DNA of 64,000 nt from Clarias gariepinus (Eukaryota): the NCBI RefSeq assembly GCF_024256425.1, contig NC_071110.1, positions 2,599,451 to 2,663,450 of the forward strand, written 5' to 3'. The notes beneath the pieces are model-generated. The model had not been told where the DNA came from, did no database searches, and saw only the letters and a list, made by a program, of their open reading frames with translations. The translations under genes and the position numbers were made by a program. Shown piece by piece: positions 11,328 to 35,361 of this stretch. The number at the start of each line of letters is the position of its first letter. Position 1 is the first letter of the stretch.

Positions 11328-11994
11328 TTAACTGAGACTAATTTGAGATTGCCCTAGCATTAAAGCAGGGGGATCAGCATCATTATTAGTGGGTAAAGAG
11401 TCAATTCCATGCTGTGTTAGAACTGCCTCCAAATTTTGTGGTCTGTAGGGATTTTCCCCAAACACATTGTTGATTGCTGCACTGTCCACTGCCATATTTA
11501 AGAGCATGCTTTCCGTCCAGATTTGAGTGGGTGTCCGGTTGTTTTCTGTACGCAAAGCATGGTTGTTCCAGGCCTCCCTAAAGCGGTCAAGGCATTTTTG
11601 AATCTCTGGAAAAAAAACTATGTAAAGAGAAAGTTTGTGGATGTCATTATTGAGATCCAGAAGCTGTGAGTCTTCAAGCGAGTAGAACATGCTGTAAAAG
11701 GATTGCAGCACATGCAAAAACACATCCCTCCAAAGACGTTCGATTCTCTGGTTGTGGACTGATTCCCCTGTAATGAAACTGCGGTGCTCAATACCCTGCA
11801 GAAGATTCATAAATAAGGCCACCTGAAAGTTCTCAACACCATGATCTGATCGGACTCTGGATGGTAGTCCATACAGGCACGTGGCTTTAAGAAACTGAGA
11901 CAGCACAGTGTTGGCACGGTTGTCAGTGTTGCAATTCAGAAAAGTGATCAGCCGAGAATGTCCATCTATGGCTCCATGAACTACGAAACCCCAT
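11328..11994 (-). CDS. Exon 4 of an integrase-like gene, the rve-type catalytic core: (R)WGFVVHGAIDGHSRLI…RVRSDHGVENF…HNQRIERLWRDV… through the stop.
   Basis: The D-D-E pattern of the retroviral/retrotransposon integrase fold: WHIDGNM (previous exon), SDHGVENF (compare HTDNGxEF / HSDRGSQY), and the E in QRIERLWRDV (compare vERfnrtLK). Acceptor ttttag|A; the frame continues from exon 3. Confidence 0.7.
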
Positions 11995-12446
11995 CTAAAA
12001 TGGTGAATACAAAGACAGAACACATACTTGCAGTTATTGGACAAGTAACTATTTAAAGTGTGAAACAACAAATAAATAAAGGCAACAATCAGTTACAAGG
12101 TGTTATGACAATACTGTGTTAGATGTCATCACTGTGTTTTTTAGTACTCTACCACAAGAAATATTTGAGTTGCAACCTACATAATCTAATTCATAATCTA
12201 GACAAACAAAACAGGCTGCCAAGGTTGTACATTAGGTTTACACTCAAGCACACTAATGAAATAGTTAATAGCCAATAAAGACGTCCACTGCATAGGTTAA
12301 TTTTTATCCGACTGCATTGCCAAAGAATTGTCAGTAGAACTGATTTAGTGTCTACTGCATGGCAAAGTCTTGAAAGCCTGACAGTATAGCCTTGACTATA
12401 TTATTACAGTACAGAGGTCATGGATTGTTTGTCAGGATGAATTCAC

Positions 12447-12631
12447 CTTATGAGGCGCATATTTCCATCTATATGCCACAGGCTGTTGGGGTATGGTGCA
12501 TGATACACCCGTCTTGCCACAGTGCTGCTCCATCTCCTAGCAGTAGCTGCTGGGTTTACCTGAGCCAACATCTCCCGCACCCTACGTCGTGGAACCAGGT
12601 GTCCATCCGCATGTAGCAATGCTCTCATCAT
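12447..12631 (-). CDS. Exon 3 of the integrase-like gene (MMRALLHADGHLVPRRRVREMLAQVNPAATARRWSSTVARRVYHAPYPNSLWHIDGNMRLI-).
   Basis: Acceptor ttctag|ATGATG, donor AAG|gtgaat. Holds the first catalytic Asp (LWHIDGNM). The phase-2 end joins exon 4 to make an Arg codon. Confidence 0.65.
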
Positions 12632-12815
12632 CTAGAATAATAATAATAATAATGTCAGTTGCTAATAATACAATTTAATCTGCTTAGCAGTAAAAAATAA
12701 ACCCCAATGCAGTAAGTGATCGCTTACCTCATATCCGGAATTTGGGTGCTGGTCTTGAAGTCTTCACATGGTGTTAGAGTTCTTCATTTTCTATTGCTGA
12801 AAATCTGCTCCTCAC

Positions 12816-12961
12816 TGGTATACCAAGCAACTTCGCCCTCTTATATAAGAATGAGGAGGAGCATCCCAAAATTTTTGCAATTCGCTTAACTGTGTTACCT
12901 TGCTTCATAAGAAAATCTATTTGGTCCCTGGTTACCTGAATGGCTGGTCGCCCTTTTCGTC
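12816..12961 (-). CDS. Exon 2 of the integrase-like gene, helix-turn-helix-like (GRKGRPAIQVTRDQIDFLMKQGNTVKRIAKILGCSSSFLYKRAKLLGIP).
   Basis: Acceptor tgtttcag|G, donor CCA|gtgagg. Exon 1 is phase 1 in and this exon is phase 0 out, which matches. The sequence has a DNA-binding HTH flavour (TVKRIAKILGCS…LYKRAK). Confidence 0.55.
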
Positions 12962-13429
12962 CTGAAACAAAATAGACTTTTTTAAATATTCATGGTTTAT
13001 CAAAAATTACACTTTTCACTGTAAACCACTGTTTTAAATAGAAGCAAGCATTAAAGTGAATTTCACATGAATTTCCATATACTTGGACTCATAAGAACAT
13101 GTAACCCTGATCCACAACAGCCTCTTATACTTAACTGCTTATTTGCATTTATCATTCCGCCACGGCATTCATGTACTCCTAGCGACAGAATTCATAGCTG
13201 TCCGTTTTTTTTTTTTATCAAGTTCTTTTACATCCACATTCTCATTTGTTTGGGTCAATTTTAATACACGCTTCATTCACAGTAAGAAAAAAAGACACTA
13301 CACGCGAACTGAGCGCTCCGTAATGTCTGTTATTCCTTTTCCGTAGTTACTATGCTAATTATTTATATCAATTGCTAAATTATTAATATTAATTATTAAA
13401 TCGTGTTTTACAAAGCACAATAAACTCAC

Positions 13430-13766
13430 CTGAAAGAATTCGAGGGGCTGAAAACCTTCCATTTTTAGCTAACAAAACTTCAGACATCAGTGTCCTGAGA
13501 CCATCCAGACTCCGTTGTAGGTCATCAAATGTGTCTGGAGACAATAAATGTTCAATGCGACGTAAATTTCTCCCACAACTCTGGAGTGAACGAAGCTCTC
13601 GTTCCCCACAAATGCCTTGGTTGTGTACGCGTTCTATTTCATGACATTTTCTAATTATTTTATCTACAACAGCGACCGCCATTTCTTCTGATACCTGTTC
13701 AAATAATTTGTCTGCTGGGCAAATATCCAATGGGAAGCCTTTCACGAGCAACGTCGGACACAACAA
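13430..13766 (-). CDS. Exon 1 of the integrase-like gene (MLCPTLLVKGFPLDICPADKLFEQ…LLAKNGRFSAPRILSG).
   Basis: The ATG at 13766 lies ~25 bp from the tandem array at 13790-14100. Donor TCAG|gtgagt. Confidence 0.55.
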
Positions 13767-13789
13767 TGCTGACGAGTCAAAATGACGTT

Positions 13790-14100
13790 TAAGATATCTT
13801 TAACTTTAATTCTGCCTAGGCAAAACTCAGTTATAGATATCTGTAATTGTAATTTAGAATGTGCGACGAGTCGAACATCAGTTTTAGTGACGTCATTGCA
13901 GATATCCGTAATTCAGTTTTGACTCTTTAAAACTTAATTGCAGATATCCCTAACTTTCATTGTGACTATCCGAAACTGAATTACAGATATCTCTAACTGT
14001 CATTTTGATTCGTAAGAATGTAATTACAACTAGTCAAAAATATGTTGTTGATATCTGTAATGTTCATTCCGGATAGTCAAATTTAGCCATTAAATGTTAA
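13790..14100. repeat. Second instance of the AGATATCT / CTAGTCA tandem array family. Same orientation as the array at 40-535. Carries TGACGTCA at 13888-13895.
   Basis: AGATATCT variants at ~13793, 13835, 13902, 13942, 13985, 14052. CTAGGCAAAACT / ACTAGTCAAAAAT spacers match units in the array at 40-535. Confidence 0.7.
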
Positions 14101-14455
14101 AACGGCTTGCCATATGTGTGTGTGTGTGTGAGGGGGAGAGGGGGTACTTTTCGTTTCTTTTTAACCTTTGTTTTAGGATCATTTCCTCCACCTGCCACAG
14201 GGGAAACAGGTCAACCAATCATTCATGTGCCTGAGCTCAGGCTGTGAATACTTATGTACATGTGCTTTCTCAATTTTTTTATTTTAAATAAATTTGCTAA
14301 AATATAAAGTAAAATCTTTTCACAGTGTCATTATGGGGTGTTTTGTGTAGAATTCTAGGGGAATCCATTTTTCTCATGTTTAATCCATTTTAGAATAAGG
14401 CTGTGACATAACAAAATGTGGAAAAAGTGGTGCGCCGTGAAAACTTTCTGGATTC

Positions 14456-14548
14456 ACTACTTAACATTATAGTAATTAATTATACTTAACATTATAGTAA
14501 TTAATTATACTTAACATTATAGTAATTAATTATACTTAACATTATAGT
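14456..14548. repeat. 24-bp tandem repeat (ACTTAACATTATAGTAATTAATTAT) x ~4.
   Basis: Direct reading. Confidence 0.9.
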
Positions 14549-15021
14549 AATTGAATTGCTTTCGTGAAAATGGCTAACATCAGAGGATGCAAAGCTAATT
14601 AAGGTAATTTAACTTACTATTTTCAGGATGGGTTGGTAAAACATACAACTTGTGAACTAAATATGAACATAAATATTAACAAAATAATAAGATTCACATT
14701 AAAATTATGTCCGCTTCTATTTTAATAGTTTAAACACTTTTTAATGTTGAGTTACATTAATGAAATCACAGCCATGCTTCAGTTGTTTGTGGCCTGCTTC
14801 CCTTCTGACTGAAAATTCCTGCGGCTACTTTGTATGGAATAAAATTACTGTCAAAAAGAAATGTTCGTAATTCAAAGCATGTGTGCGTAATTTTCATTTA
14901 CTCGTGCATGATTTAGCTTTGTCAAGAGTTGGATTCCAAAATCTACGGCCACGGCAGTTTACAGATATGAGATTTTGTGCGTTTGTTATCGTCATCAAGG
15001 TTACAGGCATTACTATCAGAG

Positions 15022-15336
15022 GGAAGATTAATCGATTCCATGATATGCGCATGCGCCCCCATTAGCGTCTTAAACCACAGGCGCCAAAATGGCGGATCAG
15101 CAGCCAATAGCTCACTCATCGTCTCAACTAAAATTCATTGTACTTCTATCGACAAAGCAAGACTCAGTGTCCATTACAAGGGACATGTTATGACTAATAA
15201 ATAAATGAGAGTTTTGAAAAAAAAAATCTGTAAGACATGTTTCTGACATCTCACAGACCTACAGTATGTTATATAAAAAAAAAAGTAATTTTTCTTTTGC
15301 TAATGGGGCGCATGCGCATATCATGGAATCGATTTT
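15022..15336. mobile_element. MITE-like element: perfect ~37-bp terminal inverted repeats (AATCGATTCCATGATATGCGCATGCGCCCCCATTAGC … GCTAATGGGGCGCATGCGCATATCATGGAATCGATT) around a ~240-bp core.
   Basis: Seen directly. The TIRs contain the palindrome GCGCATGCGC. Confidence 0.65.
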
Positions 15337-16886
15337 ATTGATAGCTACGTGTTGACCGAATGTATTTATAATTTAATTGGCTACAAAAACATTTATTAAA
15401 AAGTTTCCAAAAGTATTGTGTTTTTGCAATATATGTTTTAGTTTTACATTATATTTTCCAGTAGTTTTTATTTAACTGTTATGATAATGAATATTTAAGC
15501 TAATTATTAAAAAAATGTAAATGTTGCTTCATAGTTTGATGTGGAAATCTATGTTTTGTCCATAGAGTGTATGCTATCTGCACATGTAATACAAAGGGAG
15601 TAAACTAGCAGTGAAGGTTACTGTACCCTTGATGTAAGAACAATTGTGTACCTTTAATTAAGTTTTACTTTATAAGGTAAAAAAATTGTATCTCCAGAGG
15701 TCTTTTCTATGCCATTTATGGCACATTTATCAAAAAGGTACAAAACTGTTCTTTAAGGAACATTATTTGTACCACTGTGTACATTTCAGAGTGTATGAAA
15801 AAAAGCACCACCTATACTTATACATGCAAAAAGGGTAAATAAAATTGATTTAAAAATTACTTTTGCATTGAAATTAAAATAATAATGTTTAGTCTATTAT
15901 TGTTGTTACTTTTATAGATTATAATTAACAAAAATATATATATTACAAAATTATAATTTGTGTAATAATAAGCTGTAAGCTGTAAAAATCTTATACACTT
16001 AGTAACAGACCTTATAACATAATTAAGTTCATTTCTTTACTTTTAGCTGAATACATAATCATTTAAAAGAGAAAATGCTCATTTTATTTTTTGGATCCTT
16101 CGGTAGAGCTCAGAAGCCCCTCTTTGACTGGTCATAGTCCTCTGCTTCTTCTGCGGTTAGAAAAAAAATAATCAAGCTGTGTTTCTCCTGTGAAGAGGGT
16201 GTGAGAAGTGTGATCTTTTCAAAAGTTTGAAGGAAGACCTCCACATTGATTTAGCTTCAACAGCAGACATTGGATTTACTGCAGGGGTTTGGCAGTTGAA
16301 CACTGGCAACACCACATTGCATCAGGTGAGCTCAGCTGTTGTCGTCTGGAGACCATGGCTCAACTGCTTGAGGAGAGTCTGATGCTGGTCTGCAGGAGGC
16401 TAAGAAACTGTTGCAGGGTGACTGAGCTCCTTAATCTGAGTCCGCAGCCCGAATCCTTATCCAGTGTAAAGCACACTGGGTGGGAAAACACAGATTAGGG
16501 AAAAGTGCTGTATTTTTTTTTTTTCATAAAGCTGTGGTTGAGTAGACCAGGGGAGTGAGAAGTTTTTGGAAGTTGGTTAAGAGTGCAGGTGATGCAGATC
16601 TTTGGCTTTCAATTAAGTCAATGGTTTGGTGAGAGTAGGGTCCAGTCAAGGTCAACCAAGACTAAATGCATGAAAGGTGAGGAGGCAGTCCTGGTTGTAT
16701 ATATATTTATACATACATCGATTAGCTTCCTCTTGTTCCTCTAACATTAATGTCAGTGCAGGTGAAGTGAACAATAGTGAGTGGACCTGTCATTAAAAGT
16801 AATACTAAAAGTAATGTTTAGCATCAGTAAGAGAAGCTTCTCAAAACATTACAGTTTTTAATTTACTTAGCAATTTTCCACAAATT

Positions 16887-17416
16887 CTATTTTGGATCAC
16901 ATAACTTCATAGGGGAATCATAACTCCATATAGAGAACCCAGCATACAGAGGCTGAGTGAATGTGGTGTGCACTGTGTGGAGGAGGCTCATCGTGTCAGG
17001 GACGCTGTAGAAGGACAAAGTTCCTGCATTGTGATCTACATACACTCCTATCCTGGAGGACGCTGAACCTTGGAGCTCAGTTATAATGCTATTGTGCCGG
17101 AAACAAACAGAGGAAGAAGAACACTCCAGACTCCAAGATTGACTGTTGCGTCCAAACCTACACTCTTTGCCCTCTCCTTTTCTGCTGATCTCTTTGTATG
17201 AGACTGATATTTCCACACCAAACCCGCTCCACTCCACCTCCCAGTAACAGCGTCCACGCATACTCTCCTTACACAAGACCTGAGGCCAGGAGTCAAATCT
17301 CTCTGGATGATCAGAGTATCCTTGCTGTTTCCTACTGAGAGTTACATCTCTGTTGTTTTTAAATATAAAGAGTTTGCAGTTTGCTGTGTTGGGATCCAGA
17401 GTCAGATAATTAAAAT
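16887..17416 (-). CDS. finTRIM-like locus 1, B30.2/PRY-SPRY exon (…DFNYLTLDPNTANCKLFIFKNNRDVTLSRKQQGYSDHPERFDSWPQVLCKESMRGRCYWEVEWSGFGVEISVSYKEISRKG…RIGVYVDHNAGTLSFYSVPDTMSLLHTVHTTFTQPLYAGF…*).
   Basis: Canonical B30.2 motifs (LDPNTA, CYWEVEW, SYKxIxRKG, GVYxDHxAGTLSFY). Acceptor tttcag|ATTTTAAT at ~17417. Confidence 0.75.
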
Positions 17417-17462
17417 CTGAAACAACAAAAGTGTCCTTAGGTTAAATATTAATCACAGAATC

Positions 17463-17503
<41 letters not shown>

Positions 17504-18012
17504 GCACCCACGCTGTAGAAAATCTTCTCTACTTTTTGGTTTTGAGAGTGGAATCATCAGAACGGCTGCAATTGTAGAAAATAAGAATATGAAAATTATA
17601 TAAATATAAACAGGTTAAAGCATCAACATGAAATGTCAAATTCTTCACTGGTTTTCGTGTCACATTTTTGTAATTAAATTCTGGCGACTTTTCTCCATAA
17701 GGCTGATCTATGTTCATAGTTATGCAAATTTACAAGGCTAATGGTAATACTGTGTGTAGGGAATATTTTATTTCTGGTGTGTTTCATAATGTCTCAATGC
17801 ATGAGAACAGATTGTTGTCTTTCTTTTACCTTGACACGCTGCACTATCAATAAACACATTCCATAGTATAGTTTGTGTTATGGGTCGTTACTGCTGAAGG
17901 CTCGTAAATGCAGAACTACTCCCACGTTTCTGTTCTTCTTCACCTTATCTTTTATAAACATTCCAGACCAGTGTTTACCATGTAAACCCTCCTGCATCCT
18001 CCTTTTTGGTGC

Positions 18013-19058: not shown

Positions 19059-19948
19059 CTGAGACCAAATAAATTAGACTTGGATAAAATGTTCGAGTTA
19101 AAAACAAACATATTCCCTTTAGAAAATATAAGAGGCATCCTGGCTGAGGTGAACACTGACACTGAAATTTAATTCAGGATAAATATTCATAATGAAAAAT
19201 TGGGTAACCAGAACTAGAGTGTGGTAAAACCAGTGTTTTGGTGTCCCTGTGCACTCAGTTTATAAGTAAAAACATAAGCATGAATGCTTAACGAAAAACA
19301 GCGCAGACTGGAGAGACTGTGTTTAAACAGCTGTTCTAACACCAAAATATTTTATCGTACCTTATCGATAAAATAAAAGGCACATTTTACATCTCAATCC
19401 CACATGTATCAGTTCACAGTGACTTTGTTTGTCTGTCAGAAAAATAGAGAAAAACAGCATAAATATCTGTAAAATGAAGCTTTATCTACGTACAGTATAT
19501 TGAAACTGCTTTCAAGGATGTTCCAGCTGTTTTCCCTTTACAAGGTACAAGTTTGAGATGGTGTTATGCAGTGATGATCACATAGAATCAAACCGTACTG
19601 CATTAAGATATCTCAGCAATATTGACTTGGGTCAGATAAAGTTCTTACTTCTTACATGTAAACCTTTAGCTTTATACAGAGCTAGTATCTGGTGTGTGTG
19701 TAAGCCCAATTAACAGCTTTAACATTGGGCACGGCTTTGTGCTCTGTTGTTTTGTTGTAAACTTAATCATAATGTTGTTGGGTGTTGATGTGTAAAGTAT
19801 GTTGACTGGTCTGATAGGTTTAACACATCCTTCCCAACAATGCTTTACCTTTTTGTAAGAGATCACAGTAAATGACAGTTATAAGACTAATTTTAACTCA
19901 ACAGAAACTACATTACTATATATATAGAATTATGTAGTCTGGTCTGAC

Positions 19949-20524
19949 CTGTTTTTCAGTCCTTTCCGTTTTAGTTGAAACAGTATCATGTCCTTTATGG
20001 TCGTCTATCGTACACAAGTAACAGATGAAGCTTTGGTCAGTACGACAGTAGATCTCAGTCAGTTTGTCATGCTGAGAGCAGATCTTCTCTTGAAGCTTTG
20101 CACAAGGTTCTATTAACTTGTGCTTTTTAAAAGCAGGAGACTGATAGTGAGGTTGAAGATGATCTTCACAATAGGAGGTCCTGCACACCAGACAGGAATT
20201 GGCAGCTTTGCGTTTTCTCCCGGTGCAGGAATCACACTCCACATCTCCAGGTCCAGCGTAACAGTGAGCCCTAGAAGCAGCTTCGAGTTTGGACTTCTTC
20301 TCCACCACTTCAGCCAGACTCCATAAAACAGGTCTTGAAGTGAAAGTCTCTCTATGCTTGGGGCAGCTGTAGACTCTCCTTCGATCCTGGCAATTCCCGA
20401 AGTCATTACTACACACCTTACCGAAATTGTGGCCTCGGGGAGTAGTCACTGGATCACTCAAAGGGTTCAGACACACTGCACAGCTGAACTGATCCTGATT
20501 TACTGAAATATTTGCCTCTGCCAT
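19949..20524 (-). CDS. finTRIM-like locus 1 RING + B-box exon with substituted zinc ligands ([38 protein letters not shown]…[15 protein letters not shown]…CDSCTGRKRKAANSCLVCRTSYCEDHL…).
   Basis: The finTRIM N-terminus, but PCGHxFC reads PRGHNFG and CPQCR reads CPKHR. The B-boxes (CDxC…CLVCxxSYCEDH; CSQHDK…YCRTDQSFICYLC) are intact. Donor AAACAG|gtcaga. Confidence 0.7.
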
Positions 20525-20565
20525 TTTCCTACACTCACACACACTTGTTCAGAAAGAAACATTTG

Positions 20566-29881: not shown

Positions 29882-31057
29882 CTGAGACCAAATAAATTAG
29901 ACTTAAATAAAATGTTTAATTAAAAAACAAACATATTTCCTTTAGGAGTAAAAAAAAATATATATATAAGGGGAATCCTGGCTGAGGTGGCTCTGAGCCC
30001 ACTGCAGTCGTTCCCTTAAACATTCATTGAGTGAAACGCCTAGGCCTTGAAGGCTGACAGATAACTTGTCGGTAACTTTAGGAAGAGAAACATCTGTTTG
30101 TGGAAACTATACACACAATCATTTACCAACACCACTTGCACAGTGCAGGAACTCTGCTAGGAGTTATTGCCATTTATTGTTATCCCCCCTACAGTCCTGA
30201 CCTCACGCCAGCCATTTTCACATGTTTGGGGACTTACAGGACTTCATAGAGGCCAGAATTTTAGATCTGAAGCAGATTATGACTCTGGCATACTGAGAAA
30301 TCTTTCTACCTTAATGGTATCCAAGTACTAGTGAAACACTGGGATAAGTGCATTAGTGTAGCAGGGGATTATATAGAGAGTTTTTATTGTCAGAACTGTG
30401 TCCTGTTATTCTGCACAATTAAAAGTCCTACTTTCGGGTTATTTGTTAGGTGCTAAACAATGTTTCCTAAACAAAATGAGCTTTATCATTACCAACAATC
30501 ATATCTTTAAAAATAATAATAACTTAAAAAGATACATACATGTATTTCAGACTGACCCGGCACTGAAATTTAATTCATTTTAGGATAAATATTCATTATG
30601 AAAAGTTGGGTAACCAGAGCTAGTCTGTGGTAAAAACAGTGTTTTGGTGTCCCTGTGCATCCAGTTAATGAGTAAAAACCGTACTGCATTTAAATATTTC
30701 AGCAATATTGACTGGGTTCAGATAAAGTTCTTACTTTTTACTTGTAAACCTTTAGCTTTATACAGAGCTATGAAATATCTGGTGTGTGTGTAAGCCCAAT
30801 TAACGGAAAAAAACCTGTTTCAAATGAAATAATTATTTAAACATTGACACTTTAACACCATCACGCAGCTTTAACATTGTGCACGGCTTTGTGCTCTGTT
30901 GTTTTGTTGTAAATTCAATCATAATGTTGTTGGGTGTTGATGTGTACAATGTGCTTGACCTTTTCGTAAAGAAGCACAGTAAATGCCAGTTATAACACCA
31001 ATTAAATTAACTCAACAGAAACTACGTTATCTATAGAATTATGTAGTCTTGTCTGAC

Positions 31058-31639
31058 CTGTTTTTCAGTCCTTTCCGCTTTAGTTGAAACAGTATCATGA
31101 CCTTTATGGTCGTCTATCGTACACAAGTAACAGATGAAGCTCTGGTCAGTACGACAGTAGATCTCAGTCAGTTTGTCATGCTGAGAGCAGATCTTCTCTT
31201 GAAGCTTTGCACAAGGTTCTATTAACTTGTGCTTTTTAAAAGCAGGAGACTGATAGTGAGGTTGAAGATGATCTTCACAATAGGAGGTCCTGCACACCAG
31301 ACAGGAATTGGCAGCTTTGCGTTTTCTTCCAGTGCAGGAATCACACTCCACATCTCCAGGTCCAGCGTAACAGTGAGCCCTAGAAGCAGCTTCGAGTTTA
31401 GACTTCTTCAGCTTTTCCACCACTTCAGCCAGCCTGCGTTGAACAGGTCTAGAAGTGAAAGTTTCTCTATGCTTGGGGCAGCTGTAGACTCTCCTTTGAT
31501 CCTTGCAATTCCCGAAGTAATTACTACACACCTTACCGAAATTGTGGCCACGGGGGGTAGTCACTGGATCCCTTAAAGGGTTCAGACACACTGCACAGCT
31601 GAACTGATCCTGATTTACTGAAATATTTGCCTTAGCCAT
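31058..31639 (-). CDS. finTRIM-like locus 2 RING + B-box exon with the same ligand substitutions as locus 1 ([61 protein letters not shown]…).
   Basis: PRGHNFG and CPKHR are shared with locus 1. An ISRE is at 31681-31692 and GTGTGGCTTTAAAAA at 31743-31758. Confidence 0.7.
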
Positions 31640-33755: not shown

Positions 33756-35361
33756 CAGTGGTGTGAAAAATTATTTGCCCCTTCCTGATTTCCAATTCTT
33801 TTGCATGTTTGTCACACTTAAATGTTTCTGCTCATCAAAAACCGTTGACTATTAGTCAAAGATAACATAATTGAATACTAAATGAAGGTTTACGTTATTT
33901 AGGGAGAAAAAAAATCCAAACCTACATGGCCCTGTGTGAAAAAGTGATTGCCCCCCTTGTTAAAAAATAACTTAACTGTGGTTTATCACAGCTGAGTTCA
34001 ATTTCTGTAGTCGCCCCCAGGCCTGATTACTGCCACACCTGTTTCAATCAAGAAATCACTTAAATAGGAGCTACCTGACACAGAGAAGTAGACCAAAAGC
34101 ACCTCAAAAGCTAGACATCATGCCAAGATCCAAAGAAATTCAGGAACAAATGAGAACAAAAGTAATTGAGATCTATCAGTCTGGTAAAGGTTATAAAGCC
34201 ATTTCTAAAGCTTTGGGACTCCAGCGAACCACAGTGAGAGCCATTATCCACAAATGGCAAAAACATGGAACAGTGGTGAACCTTCCCAGGAGTGGCCGGC
34301 CGACCAAAATTACCCCAAGAGCGCAGAGACAACTCATCCGAGAGGCCACAAAAGACCCCAGGACAACATCTAAAGAACTGCAGGCCTCACTTGCCTCAAT
34401 TAAGGTCAGTGTTCACGACTCCATCATAAGAAAGAGACTGGGCAAAAACGGCCTGCATGGCAGATTTCCAAGGCGCAAACCACTTTTAAGCAAAAAGAAC
34501 ATTAAGGCTCGTCTCAATTTTGCTAAAAAAACATCTCAATGATTGCCAAGACTTTTGGGAAAATACCTTGTGGACCGACGAGACAAAAGTTGAACTTTTT
34601 GGAAGGTGCGTGTTCCGTTACATCTGGCGTAAAAGTAACACAGCATTTCAGAAAAAGAACATCATACCAACAGTAAAATATGGTGGTGGTAGTGTGATGG
34701 TCTGGGGTTGTTCTGCTGCTTCAGGACCTGGAAGGCTTGCTATGAGAGATGGAACCATGAATTCTACTGTCTACCAAAAAATCCTGAAGGAGAATGTCCG
34801 GCCATCTGTTCATCAACTCAAGCTGAAGCGATCTTGGGTGCTGCAGCAGGACAATGACCCAAAACACACCAGCAAATCCACCTCTGAATGGCTGAAGAAA
34901 AACAAAATGAAGACTTTGGAGTGGCCTAGTCAAAGTCCTGACCTGAATCCTATTGAGATGTTGTGGCATGACCTTAAAAAGGCGGTTCATGCTAGAAAAC
35001 CCTTAAATAAAGCTGAAGTACAACAATTCTGAAAAGATGAGTGGGCCAAAATTCCTCCAGAGCGCTGTAAAAGACTCGTTGTAAGTTATCGCAAACGCTT
35101 GATTGCAGTTATTGCTGCTAAGGGTGGCCCAACCAGTTATTAGGTTCAGGGGGCAATTACTTTTTTACACAGGGCCATGTAGGTGTGGATTTTTTTTCTC
35201 CCTAAATAATAAAAATCATCATTTAAAAACTGCATTTTGTGTTTACTTGTGTTATCTTTGACTAATAGTTAAATGTGTTTGATGATCAGAAACATTTTGT
35301 GTGACAAACATGCAAAAGAATAAGAAATCAGGAGGGGGGCAAATAGTTTTTCACACCACTG
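33756..35361 (+). mobile_element. Full-length Tc1-like DNA transposon, ~1.6 kb. It has ~28-bp TIRs (CAGTGGTGTGAAAAATTATTTGCCCC … GGGGGGCAAATAGTTTTTCACACCACTG) flanked by TA. The transposase is frameshifted.
   Basis: TIRs read directly at 33756-33783 and 35334-35361; a TA dinucleotide on each side. The transposase is split across ORFs 34120-34542 and 34520-35032. Confidence 0.85.
34120..35032 (+). pseudogene. Tc1 transposase broken into two overlapping ORFs by a frameshift near 34520-34542 (MPRSKEIQEQMRTKVIEIYQSGKGYKAISKALGLQRTTVRAIIHKW… / …LWTDETKVELFG…VKYGGGSVMVWGC…DNDPKHTSK…EWPSQSPDLNPIEMLWHDLKKAV…).
   Basis: Paired-like HTH plus a DD34E core, all Tc1 hallmarks; two reading frames. Confidence 0.8.

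Follow-up and report, generated by a model that had tools for sequence, protein, structure and literature searches.

The IS3EU transposons of Repbase and the GingerRoot elements have been merged as one superfamily, IS3EU/GingerRoot (Kojima & Bao 2023, PMC10045372), whose members have an integrase-related DDE (Asp-Asp-Glu) transposase without an HHCC domain, TA..TA termini, terminal inverted repeats (TIRs), and 6-bp target site duplications (TSDs) (PMC10045372, PMC6839031). Here we describe a locus on the minus strand of 11.2 to 13.8 kb in a 64,000-nucleotide stretch of the Clarias gariepinus genome (NC_071110.1; the window, to which positions refer unless another locus is named), for which an earlier note had proposed an intact four-exon integrase gene, either domesticated by the host or belonging to an intron-bearing DNA transposon family. 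Its boundaries, TIRs, fold, family membership, and lesions, together with the 6-bp TSD of a sister copy, make it very probable that window 1-14114 holds a recently inserted but now defunct copy of an autonomous IS3EU/GingerRoot DNA transposon.

The element shares with IS3EU-1_CVi, -1_SK, and -1_DR/-3_DR the core motifs LWHxDxNHKLIRW, IDGxSR, GLPSRVRSDxGxEN, and SVHNQRIERLWRDV, the lack of an HHCC domain, TA..TA termini, TIRs, and, in its sister copy, a 6-bp TSD. Unlike them, the teleost lineage has subterminal AGATATCT arrays of ~0.3 to 0.7 kb and a second gene of the UBX-HECT type, neither of which we found described for IS3EU in the literature searched, Repbase itself lying outside that search. 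GingerRoot of Selaginella lepidophylla (Cerbin et al. 2019, PMC6839031), for which fish homologs have been noted, likewise has an integrase-related DDE transposase, a 6-bp TSD, and mostly TA..TA termini, but its TIRs are 100 to 150 bp long and it has captured gene fragments, whereas here we find a perfect 29-bp TIR, arrays, and a complete passenger gene under purifying selection. Fungal IS3EU elements have TAYGG..CCRTA ends and harbor additional genes, of which one runs opposite to the transposase gene (PMC12730594). Those with alpha-kinase and TET/JBP genes (Kojima 2025, PMC12730594) resemble the catfish element in these ends, the 6-bp TSD (seen here in the sister copy), the presence of TIRs (>30 bp in fungi), and the opposite-oriented extra gene; they differ in host and passenger, the catfish element residing in a vertebrate and carrying a HECT E3 ligase in place of their kinase or dioxygenase. 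Bacterial IS3 and IS481 elements also encode an N-terminal helix-turn-helix (HTH) followed by a DD(35)E rve-type core, but they are intronless, end in TG..CA, have TSDs of 3 to 5 bp or of variable length and often frameshifted open reading frames (ORFs), and move by copy-out-paste-in.

Membership in the IS3EU/GingerRoot superfamily

The coding signal at 11.2 to 13.8 kb is real. The conceptual protein gave a significant integrase-profile match, to the Pfam domain PF24764 (rva_4, "integrase core domain") at E = 9.9e-98, and contained all of the motifs LWHIDGNM, AIDGHSR, RSDHGVEN, and HNQRIERLW. The rve, HTH_23, HTH_7, and HTH_28 profiles matched weakly, below their cutoffs (the HTH matches at residues 97 to 126), and no zinc-finger or Integrase_Zn (HHCC) match was found in Pfam at E <= 1. 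A protein search returned 2665 homologs, among which teleosts, echinoderms, molluscs, and insects predominated. The best of these (79% identity) was P0001, the 481-amino-acid product of Epinephelus moara LOC126389342, which is encoded at the grouper locus L001.

We compared the window core with Repbase core sequences taken from the supplementary alignment of PMC10045372, scoring each as a z value against shuffles. Identity was 61% with IS3EU-1_CVi (z 54.0), 54% with IS3EU-1_SK (z 53.6), 38% with IS3EU-1_DR (z 32.8), 39% with IS3EU-1_CGi (z 31.6), and 29% with IS3EU-1_PGra (z 18.3); the four Ginger1 and Ginger2 cores tested gave z values of 2.5 to 8.8, near the shuffled background. By this comparison the family is IS3EU/GingerRoot, rather than of the retroviral, long terminal repeat (LTR), Ginger, or Maverick type whose flavor had been read into the protein earlier. 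The element is a new member of the superfamily, each defining feature of which we found in the window copy or, for the TSD, in its sister copy.

Sequence comparison with the Protein Data Bank (PDB) returned at best marginal matches to the integrase of human T-lymphotropic virus (HTLV; E = 0.3), and a search by fold was therefore needed. We modeled P0001, which is 81% identical to the transposase of the sister copy, in AlphaFold2 with 44 homologs (pLDDT 82.8, pTM 0.74). In the model, the N-terminal region consists of helices only, and a three-helix unit at residues 97 to 130 coincides with the weak HTH matches. The strands and helices that follow are in RNase-H-like order: strand 215-221 (with D219), strands 230-236 and 242-248, helix 253-267, strand 272-275 followed by D276, and helix 309-334, which carries E311. 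D219 and E311 were invariant and D276 was at least 90% conserved in the 44 sequences, and the first catalytic Asp, at about residue 219, is within 100 to 300 residues of the N-terminus. Searched against the PDB with Foldseek, the model matched the integrases of Rous sarcoma virus, mouse mammary tumor virus, prototype foamy virus, and HTLV, as well as TnsB and MuA, with E values down to 1.4e-5 and a template modeling (TM) score of up to 0.76 on the HTLV-2 integrase catalytic core. The family is thus predicted to have a retroviral-integrase/TnsB-like fold with a DD(35)E core. The HTH-plus-DDE architecture proposed earlier was borne out by the Pfam matches, the model, and Foldseek; of the proposed D-D-E core, the triad stands, with DD(35)E spacing, and the Asp of AIDGHSR, conserved but on strand 2 of the model, is predicted to be noncatalytic.

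Given these matches, we weighed whether the gene might encode the integrase of an LTR retrotransposon, a Ginger1/2 element, or a Maverick/Polinton. These belong to the same RNase-H-fold DD(35)E integrase superfamily, the rve profile does match weakly, and retroviral integrases are the best structural matches, but the core similarity to Ginger1/2 is near background, HHCC is missing, the termini are TA..TA rather than TG..CA or AG..TC, and the TSD of the sister copy is 6 bp rather than 4 to 5 bp. Reverse transcriptase, protease, polB, capsid, and ATPase genes were not found; the element has two genes, and the 10-kb sister copy holds the transposase and HECT genes only. We regard such an origin as barely credible.

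Termini and subterminal arrays

The features of the IS3EU/GingerRoot copy are listed in Table 1; at least 14.1 kb of it is visible in the window. The visible end begins TATGGCAAGCCG..., followed by arrays of ~43-bp AGATATCT units. Read from 14114, it gives TATGGCAAGCC..., and this TATGG start agrees with the TA..TA and TAYGG..CCRTA ends reported for IS3EU (PMC10045372, PMC12730594). The outermost transposase-side sequence, ending at 14114, is TATGGCAAGCCGTTTTAACATTTA. The same motif ends elements in Epinephelus, Culter, Osmerus, Melanotaenia, Trichomycterus, and Siphateles and, with 4 mismatches, in Arctogadus, the flanks being unrelated, and conservation of the first 12 to 24 nt of the TIR extends to the element ends of seven further teleost species. 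In Boreogadus (L009 6141-6270), the terminal 65 bp of the element are tandemly duplicated (…GTAGATATC followed directly by TATGGCAAGCCG…).

Table 1. Features of the transposon copy in the window
Feature	Position	Strand	Remarks
IS3EU/GingerRoot-type DNA transposon copy	1..14114		Colinear with L010 7767-17620; cut by window start, ~161 bp of HECT-side end missing
Subterminal array, HECT side	46..520		14 GATATC cores, ~43-bp period
UBX-HECT (G2E3-like) E3-ligase gene, degraded	620..10189	+	Convergent with transposase; Pfam HECT E=2e-10
Nested Tc1/mariner-like insertion	4816..9023		4,208 bp, TA target duplication, CAGT... inverted termini CAGTAGTTGATCAATTGG / CCGATTGATTAACCACTG
Transposase exon 4, ancestral extent	11226..11994	-	Catalytic Asp (RSDHG) 11844-11846; Glu (RIERLW) 11739-11741; premature TAA 11328-11330; ancestral stop 11226-11228
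Transposase exon 3	12447..12631	-	First catalytic Asp (WHID) 12467-12469
Transposase exon 2, ancestral extent	12728..12961	-	HTH at about 12837-12926; TAA 12774-12776; 2-bp deletion 12765
Transposase exon 1, coding sequence from ATG	13430..13682	-	Starts MAVAVVDKI as homologs; borders match L001, L010
Subterminal array, transposase side	13766..14068		~43-bp units, palindromic AGATATCT core, 6 GATATC cores
TIR, transposase side, TATGGCAAGCCGTTTTAACATTTAATGGC	14086..14114	-	Identical to both 29-bp ends of L010

The arrays, for which TTTTGACTAGTCAAAA is a unit sequence alongside AGATATCT, hold 20 of the window's 31 GATATC sites, and the array motif matched 15 times in the window against 0.11 expected. 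The transposase-side array is a candidate for a set of transposase-binding sites and a promoter region. In Osmerus (L004 9190-9920), the AGATATCT core is kept and the units differ, being a 33-bp TTTGCATGTTAACTAGATATCTTCTAAAGCTAA unit and GTTACTAGTAAC units, so that the core, not the unit, is what is conserved.

The grouper locus is colinear with the element in the window, L001 9559-21680 corresponding to window 14114-1 at 68 to 86% nucleotide identity, with part of the introns and the convergent HECT gene included. Intron 1 and most of the intergenic spacer had no significant catfish-grouper similarity, so noncoding conservation is partial. Similarity ends at the element borders: beyond 14114 there was none to L001 or to the sister locus L010, and a (TG)8 tract abuts the terminus at 14115-14130 (TGTGTG at 14115-14120). 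Orthology with the E. moara locus was rejected because similarity stops at these borders and the host is a catfish.

A complete sister copy and the mobility of the family

The sister copy lies at another C. gariepinus locus, L010 (CM044208.1), where the element is complete at 7606-17620: 10,015 bp with 29/29 perfect TIRs (TATGG...CCATA), subterminal arrays, and two convergent intron-containing genes. On either side it is flanked by AACCCA, a 6-bp direct repeat that agrees in length with the TSD of IS3EU. Neighbors differ between the two copies, with a MORC-like gene at L010 and (TG)n plus a finTRIM cluster at the window copy. The L010 transposase gene is intact, with four exons and GT-AG introns, and encodes 480 amino acids that are predicted to form a coiled N-terminus, a three-helix HTH, and the RNase-H-fold DD(35)E core. 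Substitutions between the copies amount to 0.88% over window 1-4815 and 0.67% over 9024-14114, to which 14 small indels are added, and the 4.2-kb insertion between these segments is specific to the window copy. The intactness of L010 and a substitution divergence of <1% suggest that the element is possibly active in Clarias. Around 11.2 to 14.1 kb, where TIRs and TSDs were to be sought, the TIR was found; the TSD was seen at L010, the second end of the window copy being outside the window.

A search for the two ends and their TSD at nine related loci (E. moara, Arctogadus, Culter, Osmerus, Melanotaenia, Trichomycterus, two in Siphateles, and Boreogadus) gave no complete copy: one terminus was lost, the element ran beyond the fetched DNA, or, in Arctogadus, an assembly gap broke it. 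The family is multicopy within genomes: with a threshold of >=90% identity, E. lanceolatus has three or more integrase loci, and HECT members lie on several chromosomes of C. gariepinus. Copies are clustered, nested, or head to head in Osmerus, Trichomycterus, and gadids, and the two ends in Trichomycterus share 278 bp at 95.7% identity. Head-to-head or adjacent copies in Osmerus (L004 9100-10000 and 19600-20350) and Trichomycterus (L006 18990-20960) form large palindromes with their centers, the termini, missing, and several copies are without the terminal ~100 bp on the transposase side.

The window transposase gene is disrupted

We set the ancestral window exons by exon-by-exon alignment with E. 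moara L001, in which the exons derived exactly from its protein are 10001-10256, 10517-10752, 10848-11032, and 11792-12560. Arctogadus, Osmerus, Culter, and Clarias share this four-exon structure. The four exons proposed earlier can indeed be spliced in phase at GT-AG borders into 1335 nt free of internal stops, and exon 1 from the ATG, exon 3, and the acceptors of exons 2 and 4 match L001 and L010, but this is not the ancestral structure, and the exon-2 donor and the stop fail. Exon 1 had been extended to 13766, yet bases 13683-13766 lie upstream of the conserved ATG (13682). The exon-2 donor at 12816/12815 is a cryptic GT inside coding sequence ('GIPVRS') that all homologs retain. The proposed stop in exon 4 is CAA or CAG in relatives, and the frame continues through 33 further conserved codons. 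The proposed product of ~470 amino acids is in fact 416 from the ATG (444 codons from 13766), the intact ancestral protein having 480.

Measured against relatives, the window transposase carries two nonsense codons and one frameshift. All three are absent from L010, whose intact transposase therefore marks them as specific to the window copy. The exon-2 nonsense codon is GAA in relatives. In the homolog alignment, the stretch spliced out after 12816 reads VRSRFSAIENEEL*HHVK-LQDQHPNSGYE in the window and VRRRFSVIDDEELERHVRRLQGLYPNSGYE in E. moara. The earlier in-phase model works because the GT within the 'IPVR' codons skips 88 nt holding the TAA and the 2-bp deletion. The gene is 'intact' only by way of a donor that skips two of the three lesions, and the 'intact gene' is thus an artefact of cryptic splice choice.

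Use of this donor could in principle give the window copy a 416-amino-acid product, minus 30 internal and 33 C-terminal residues, that might regulate or repress the family. Splicing from this plausible donor (CCA/GTGAGG) brings the reading frame back, and both the HTH and the DDE core would be retained. We consider such a product quite unlikely, since the skipped segment and the lost C-terminus hold invariant or near-invariant positions, all homolog models treat the GT at 12816 as coding, restoration of the frame hinges on the window-specific 2-bp deletion, and the adjoining HECT gene has decayed in parallel, as under neutral decay.

The lesions bear equally on host domestication, under which this would be a single-copy gene kept for a cellular function, like GIN1 and other exapted integrases. 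Intron positions are indeed conserved across teleost orders, Ka/Ks against the grouper homolog is low (0.20), and RefSeq annotates relatives as ordinary genes; purifying selection between lineages, however, is also expected for an active transposase, and comparison with a copy <1% different in substitutions reveals one frameshift and two nonsense codons in the window gene. In place of an intact ORF, lost transposon ends, and a single orthologous locus, we found a broken frame, a retained TIR with its repeat arrays, a family that is multicopy within genomes, and a paralogous copy with a TSD at another locus. Domestication is highly improbable and, for this locus, is refuted on the earlier note's own terms because a near-identical copy (>99% in substitutions) has TIRs and a TSD at a different locus. 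The other possibility that had been raised, an intron-bearing DNA transposon family, is borne out by the TIRs, the TSD at L010, and the IS3EU core identity.

A HECT ligase gene as the second gene of the element

The convergent gene is 96 to 99% identical per exon to the C. gariepinus proteins P0121 and P0354. Homologous proteins are named "G2/M phase-specific E3 ubiquitin-protein ligase-like," some of them with a UBX domain, and the catalytic-cysteine context PEANTC, read by eye, is present. The window gene is broken by deletions of 4 bp (~3024) and 7 bp (~3377) and by the stop codons TAA at 3477-3479 and TAG at 9314-9316. A HECT coding exon is also split by the nested insertion, which is found neither in L010 (Clarias) nor in L001 (grouper). 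Over 620-13682, four nonsense substitutions occur among the few dozen coding differences between the window and L010, seemingly too many for chance given a rough expectation of <1. Hypermutation by editing or like repeat-induced point mutation (RIP) was considered and rejected as their source, the substitution spectrum being unremarkable and the contexts without a RIP-like or CpG-only signature.

Conserved 5' HECT exons lie on the plus strand at 620-772, ~992-1117, and 1263-1500 (MSEQQEEQRVVFDRIFNAAARARQEL..., ...NFVCQSYP...); they begin MSEQ... and adjoin the array. They are upstream of the annotated HECT start in the Clarias and grouper models, which are probably 5'-truncated because the carp protein P0206 joins these exons to the HECT protein.

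Transposase and HECT genes are convergent neighbors in six species of different orders (Epinephelus, Arctogadus, Osmerus, Trichomycterus, Siphateles, and Clarias), and at L010 both are inside the TIR- and TSD-bounded unit. Between L010 and E. moara, the HECT gene has a Ks (synonymous divergence) of 0.44, a Ka (nonsynonymous divergence) of 0.11, and a Ka/Ks of 0.25; the corresponding values for the transposase, window against E. moara, are 0.50, 0.10, and 0.20. By these values, the transposase and HECT genes diverged in step while under purifying selection. At ~0.5, Ks between catfish and grouper appears far lower than would be expected of vertically inherited neutral sites. The Clarias transposase is 76 to 81% identical to percomorph copies, 68% to a cyprinid copy, and 70% to another catfish copy; that it is nearer to percomorph copies suggests horizontal transfer or the sorting of old lineages. 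We put forward only tentatively, as possible rather than probable, the broader reading that a teleost IS3EU lineage has kept a complete UBX-HECT gene under purifying selection alongside the transposase in at least six fish orders, has moved between distant fishes (Ks ~0.5), and may still be active in Clarias.

Our literature search found no paper tying HECT to IS3EU or to other transposons, and an earlier description in Repbase is possible. A study of Cottus reported unclassified repeats of variable copy number with G2E3 matches (PMC5638112), which are consistent with a transposon-borne HECT gene.

Proposed activity of the element

In an active copy, the transposase would bind the terminal and subterminal repeats through its HTH, and its DDE site would cut the ends and join them to a target whose two strands are cut 6 bp apart. 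Each repeat array may double as the promoter of the adjacent gene, and the HECT protein may be an accessory factor that acts on the host or on the transposase. The window copy inserted beside the (TG)n tract; thereafter its transposase gene took on a frameshift and two nonsense codons, its HECT gene suffered four lesions, and a Tc1/mariner-like element inserted into it. The copy is not a host gene, nor is it autonomous, and it could be moved at best in trans.

Several points weigh against our reading of window 1-14114 as a dead copy of an autonomous transposon. L010 is the only copy seen complete with both ends, and the HECT-side terminus and TSD of the window copy lie beyond the window edge. 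The mobility and transcripts of the element are predictions from sequence, as are the roles suggested for the repeat arrays and the HECT protein, and a eukaryotic IS3EU element might move either by cut-and-paste or by copy-out-paste-in like bacterial IS3/IS481.

The locus itself is of little import beyond illustrating that a predictor, or the eye, can rescue a transposon pseudogene into a false "intact" gene via a cryptic splice site. More broadly, a single IS3EU element with its two genes appears to account for many genes that fish annotations call "G2/M phase-specific E3 ubiquitin-protein ligase-like" or "uncharacterized protein / integrase catalytic domain"; these should be handled as transposon genes in annotation and in studies of gene-family expansion. 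Having perfect TIRs and near-identical paralogs, the intact copy in Clarias is a candidate for a DNA transposon active in a vertebrate and a potential tool. A HECT ligase conserved on a transposon would be a counterpart to the TET/JBP and kinase passengers found in fungal IS3EU and would represent a transposon manipulating host ubiquitination; should the ligase aid transposition or dampen silencing by the host, it would be a HECT factor of a kind not yet described from transposons, and the element a candidate for a new DNA transposon active in vertebrates. The conserved HECT passenger and the possibly active Clarias copy are the only novel points, and only mildly so.

Surroundings of the element

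Just outside the element end, four repeats of a 25-bp unit, 98% identical, occupy 14458-14557. An inverted repeat with perfect 30-nt arms (AATCGATTCCATGATATGCGCATGCGCCCC) separated by 245 nt lies at 15030-15334 and resembles a miniature inverted-repeat transposable element (MITE). A tandem cluster of finTRIM/TRIM25-like genes, made up of RING-B-box exons and B30.2 exons, occupies the minus strand from 16887 to 62792; its best matches are all in catfishes (Siluriformes), and the RING cysteines of some genes are degraded (19916-20542 and 31031-31639). On the plus strand at 34120-35032, two adjacent ORFs corresponding to the HTH and DDE parts of a Tc1-like transposase are probably one frameshifted gene.

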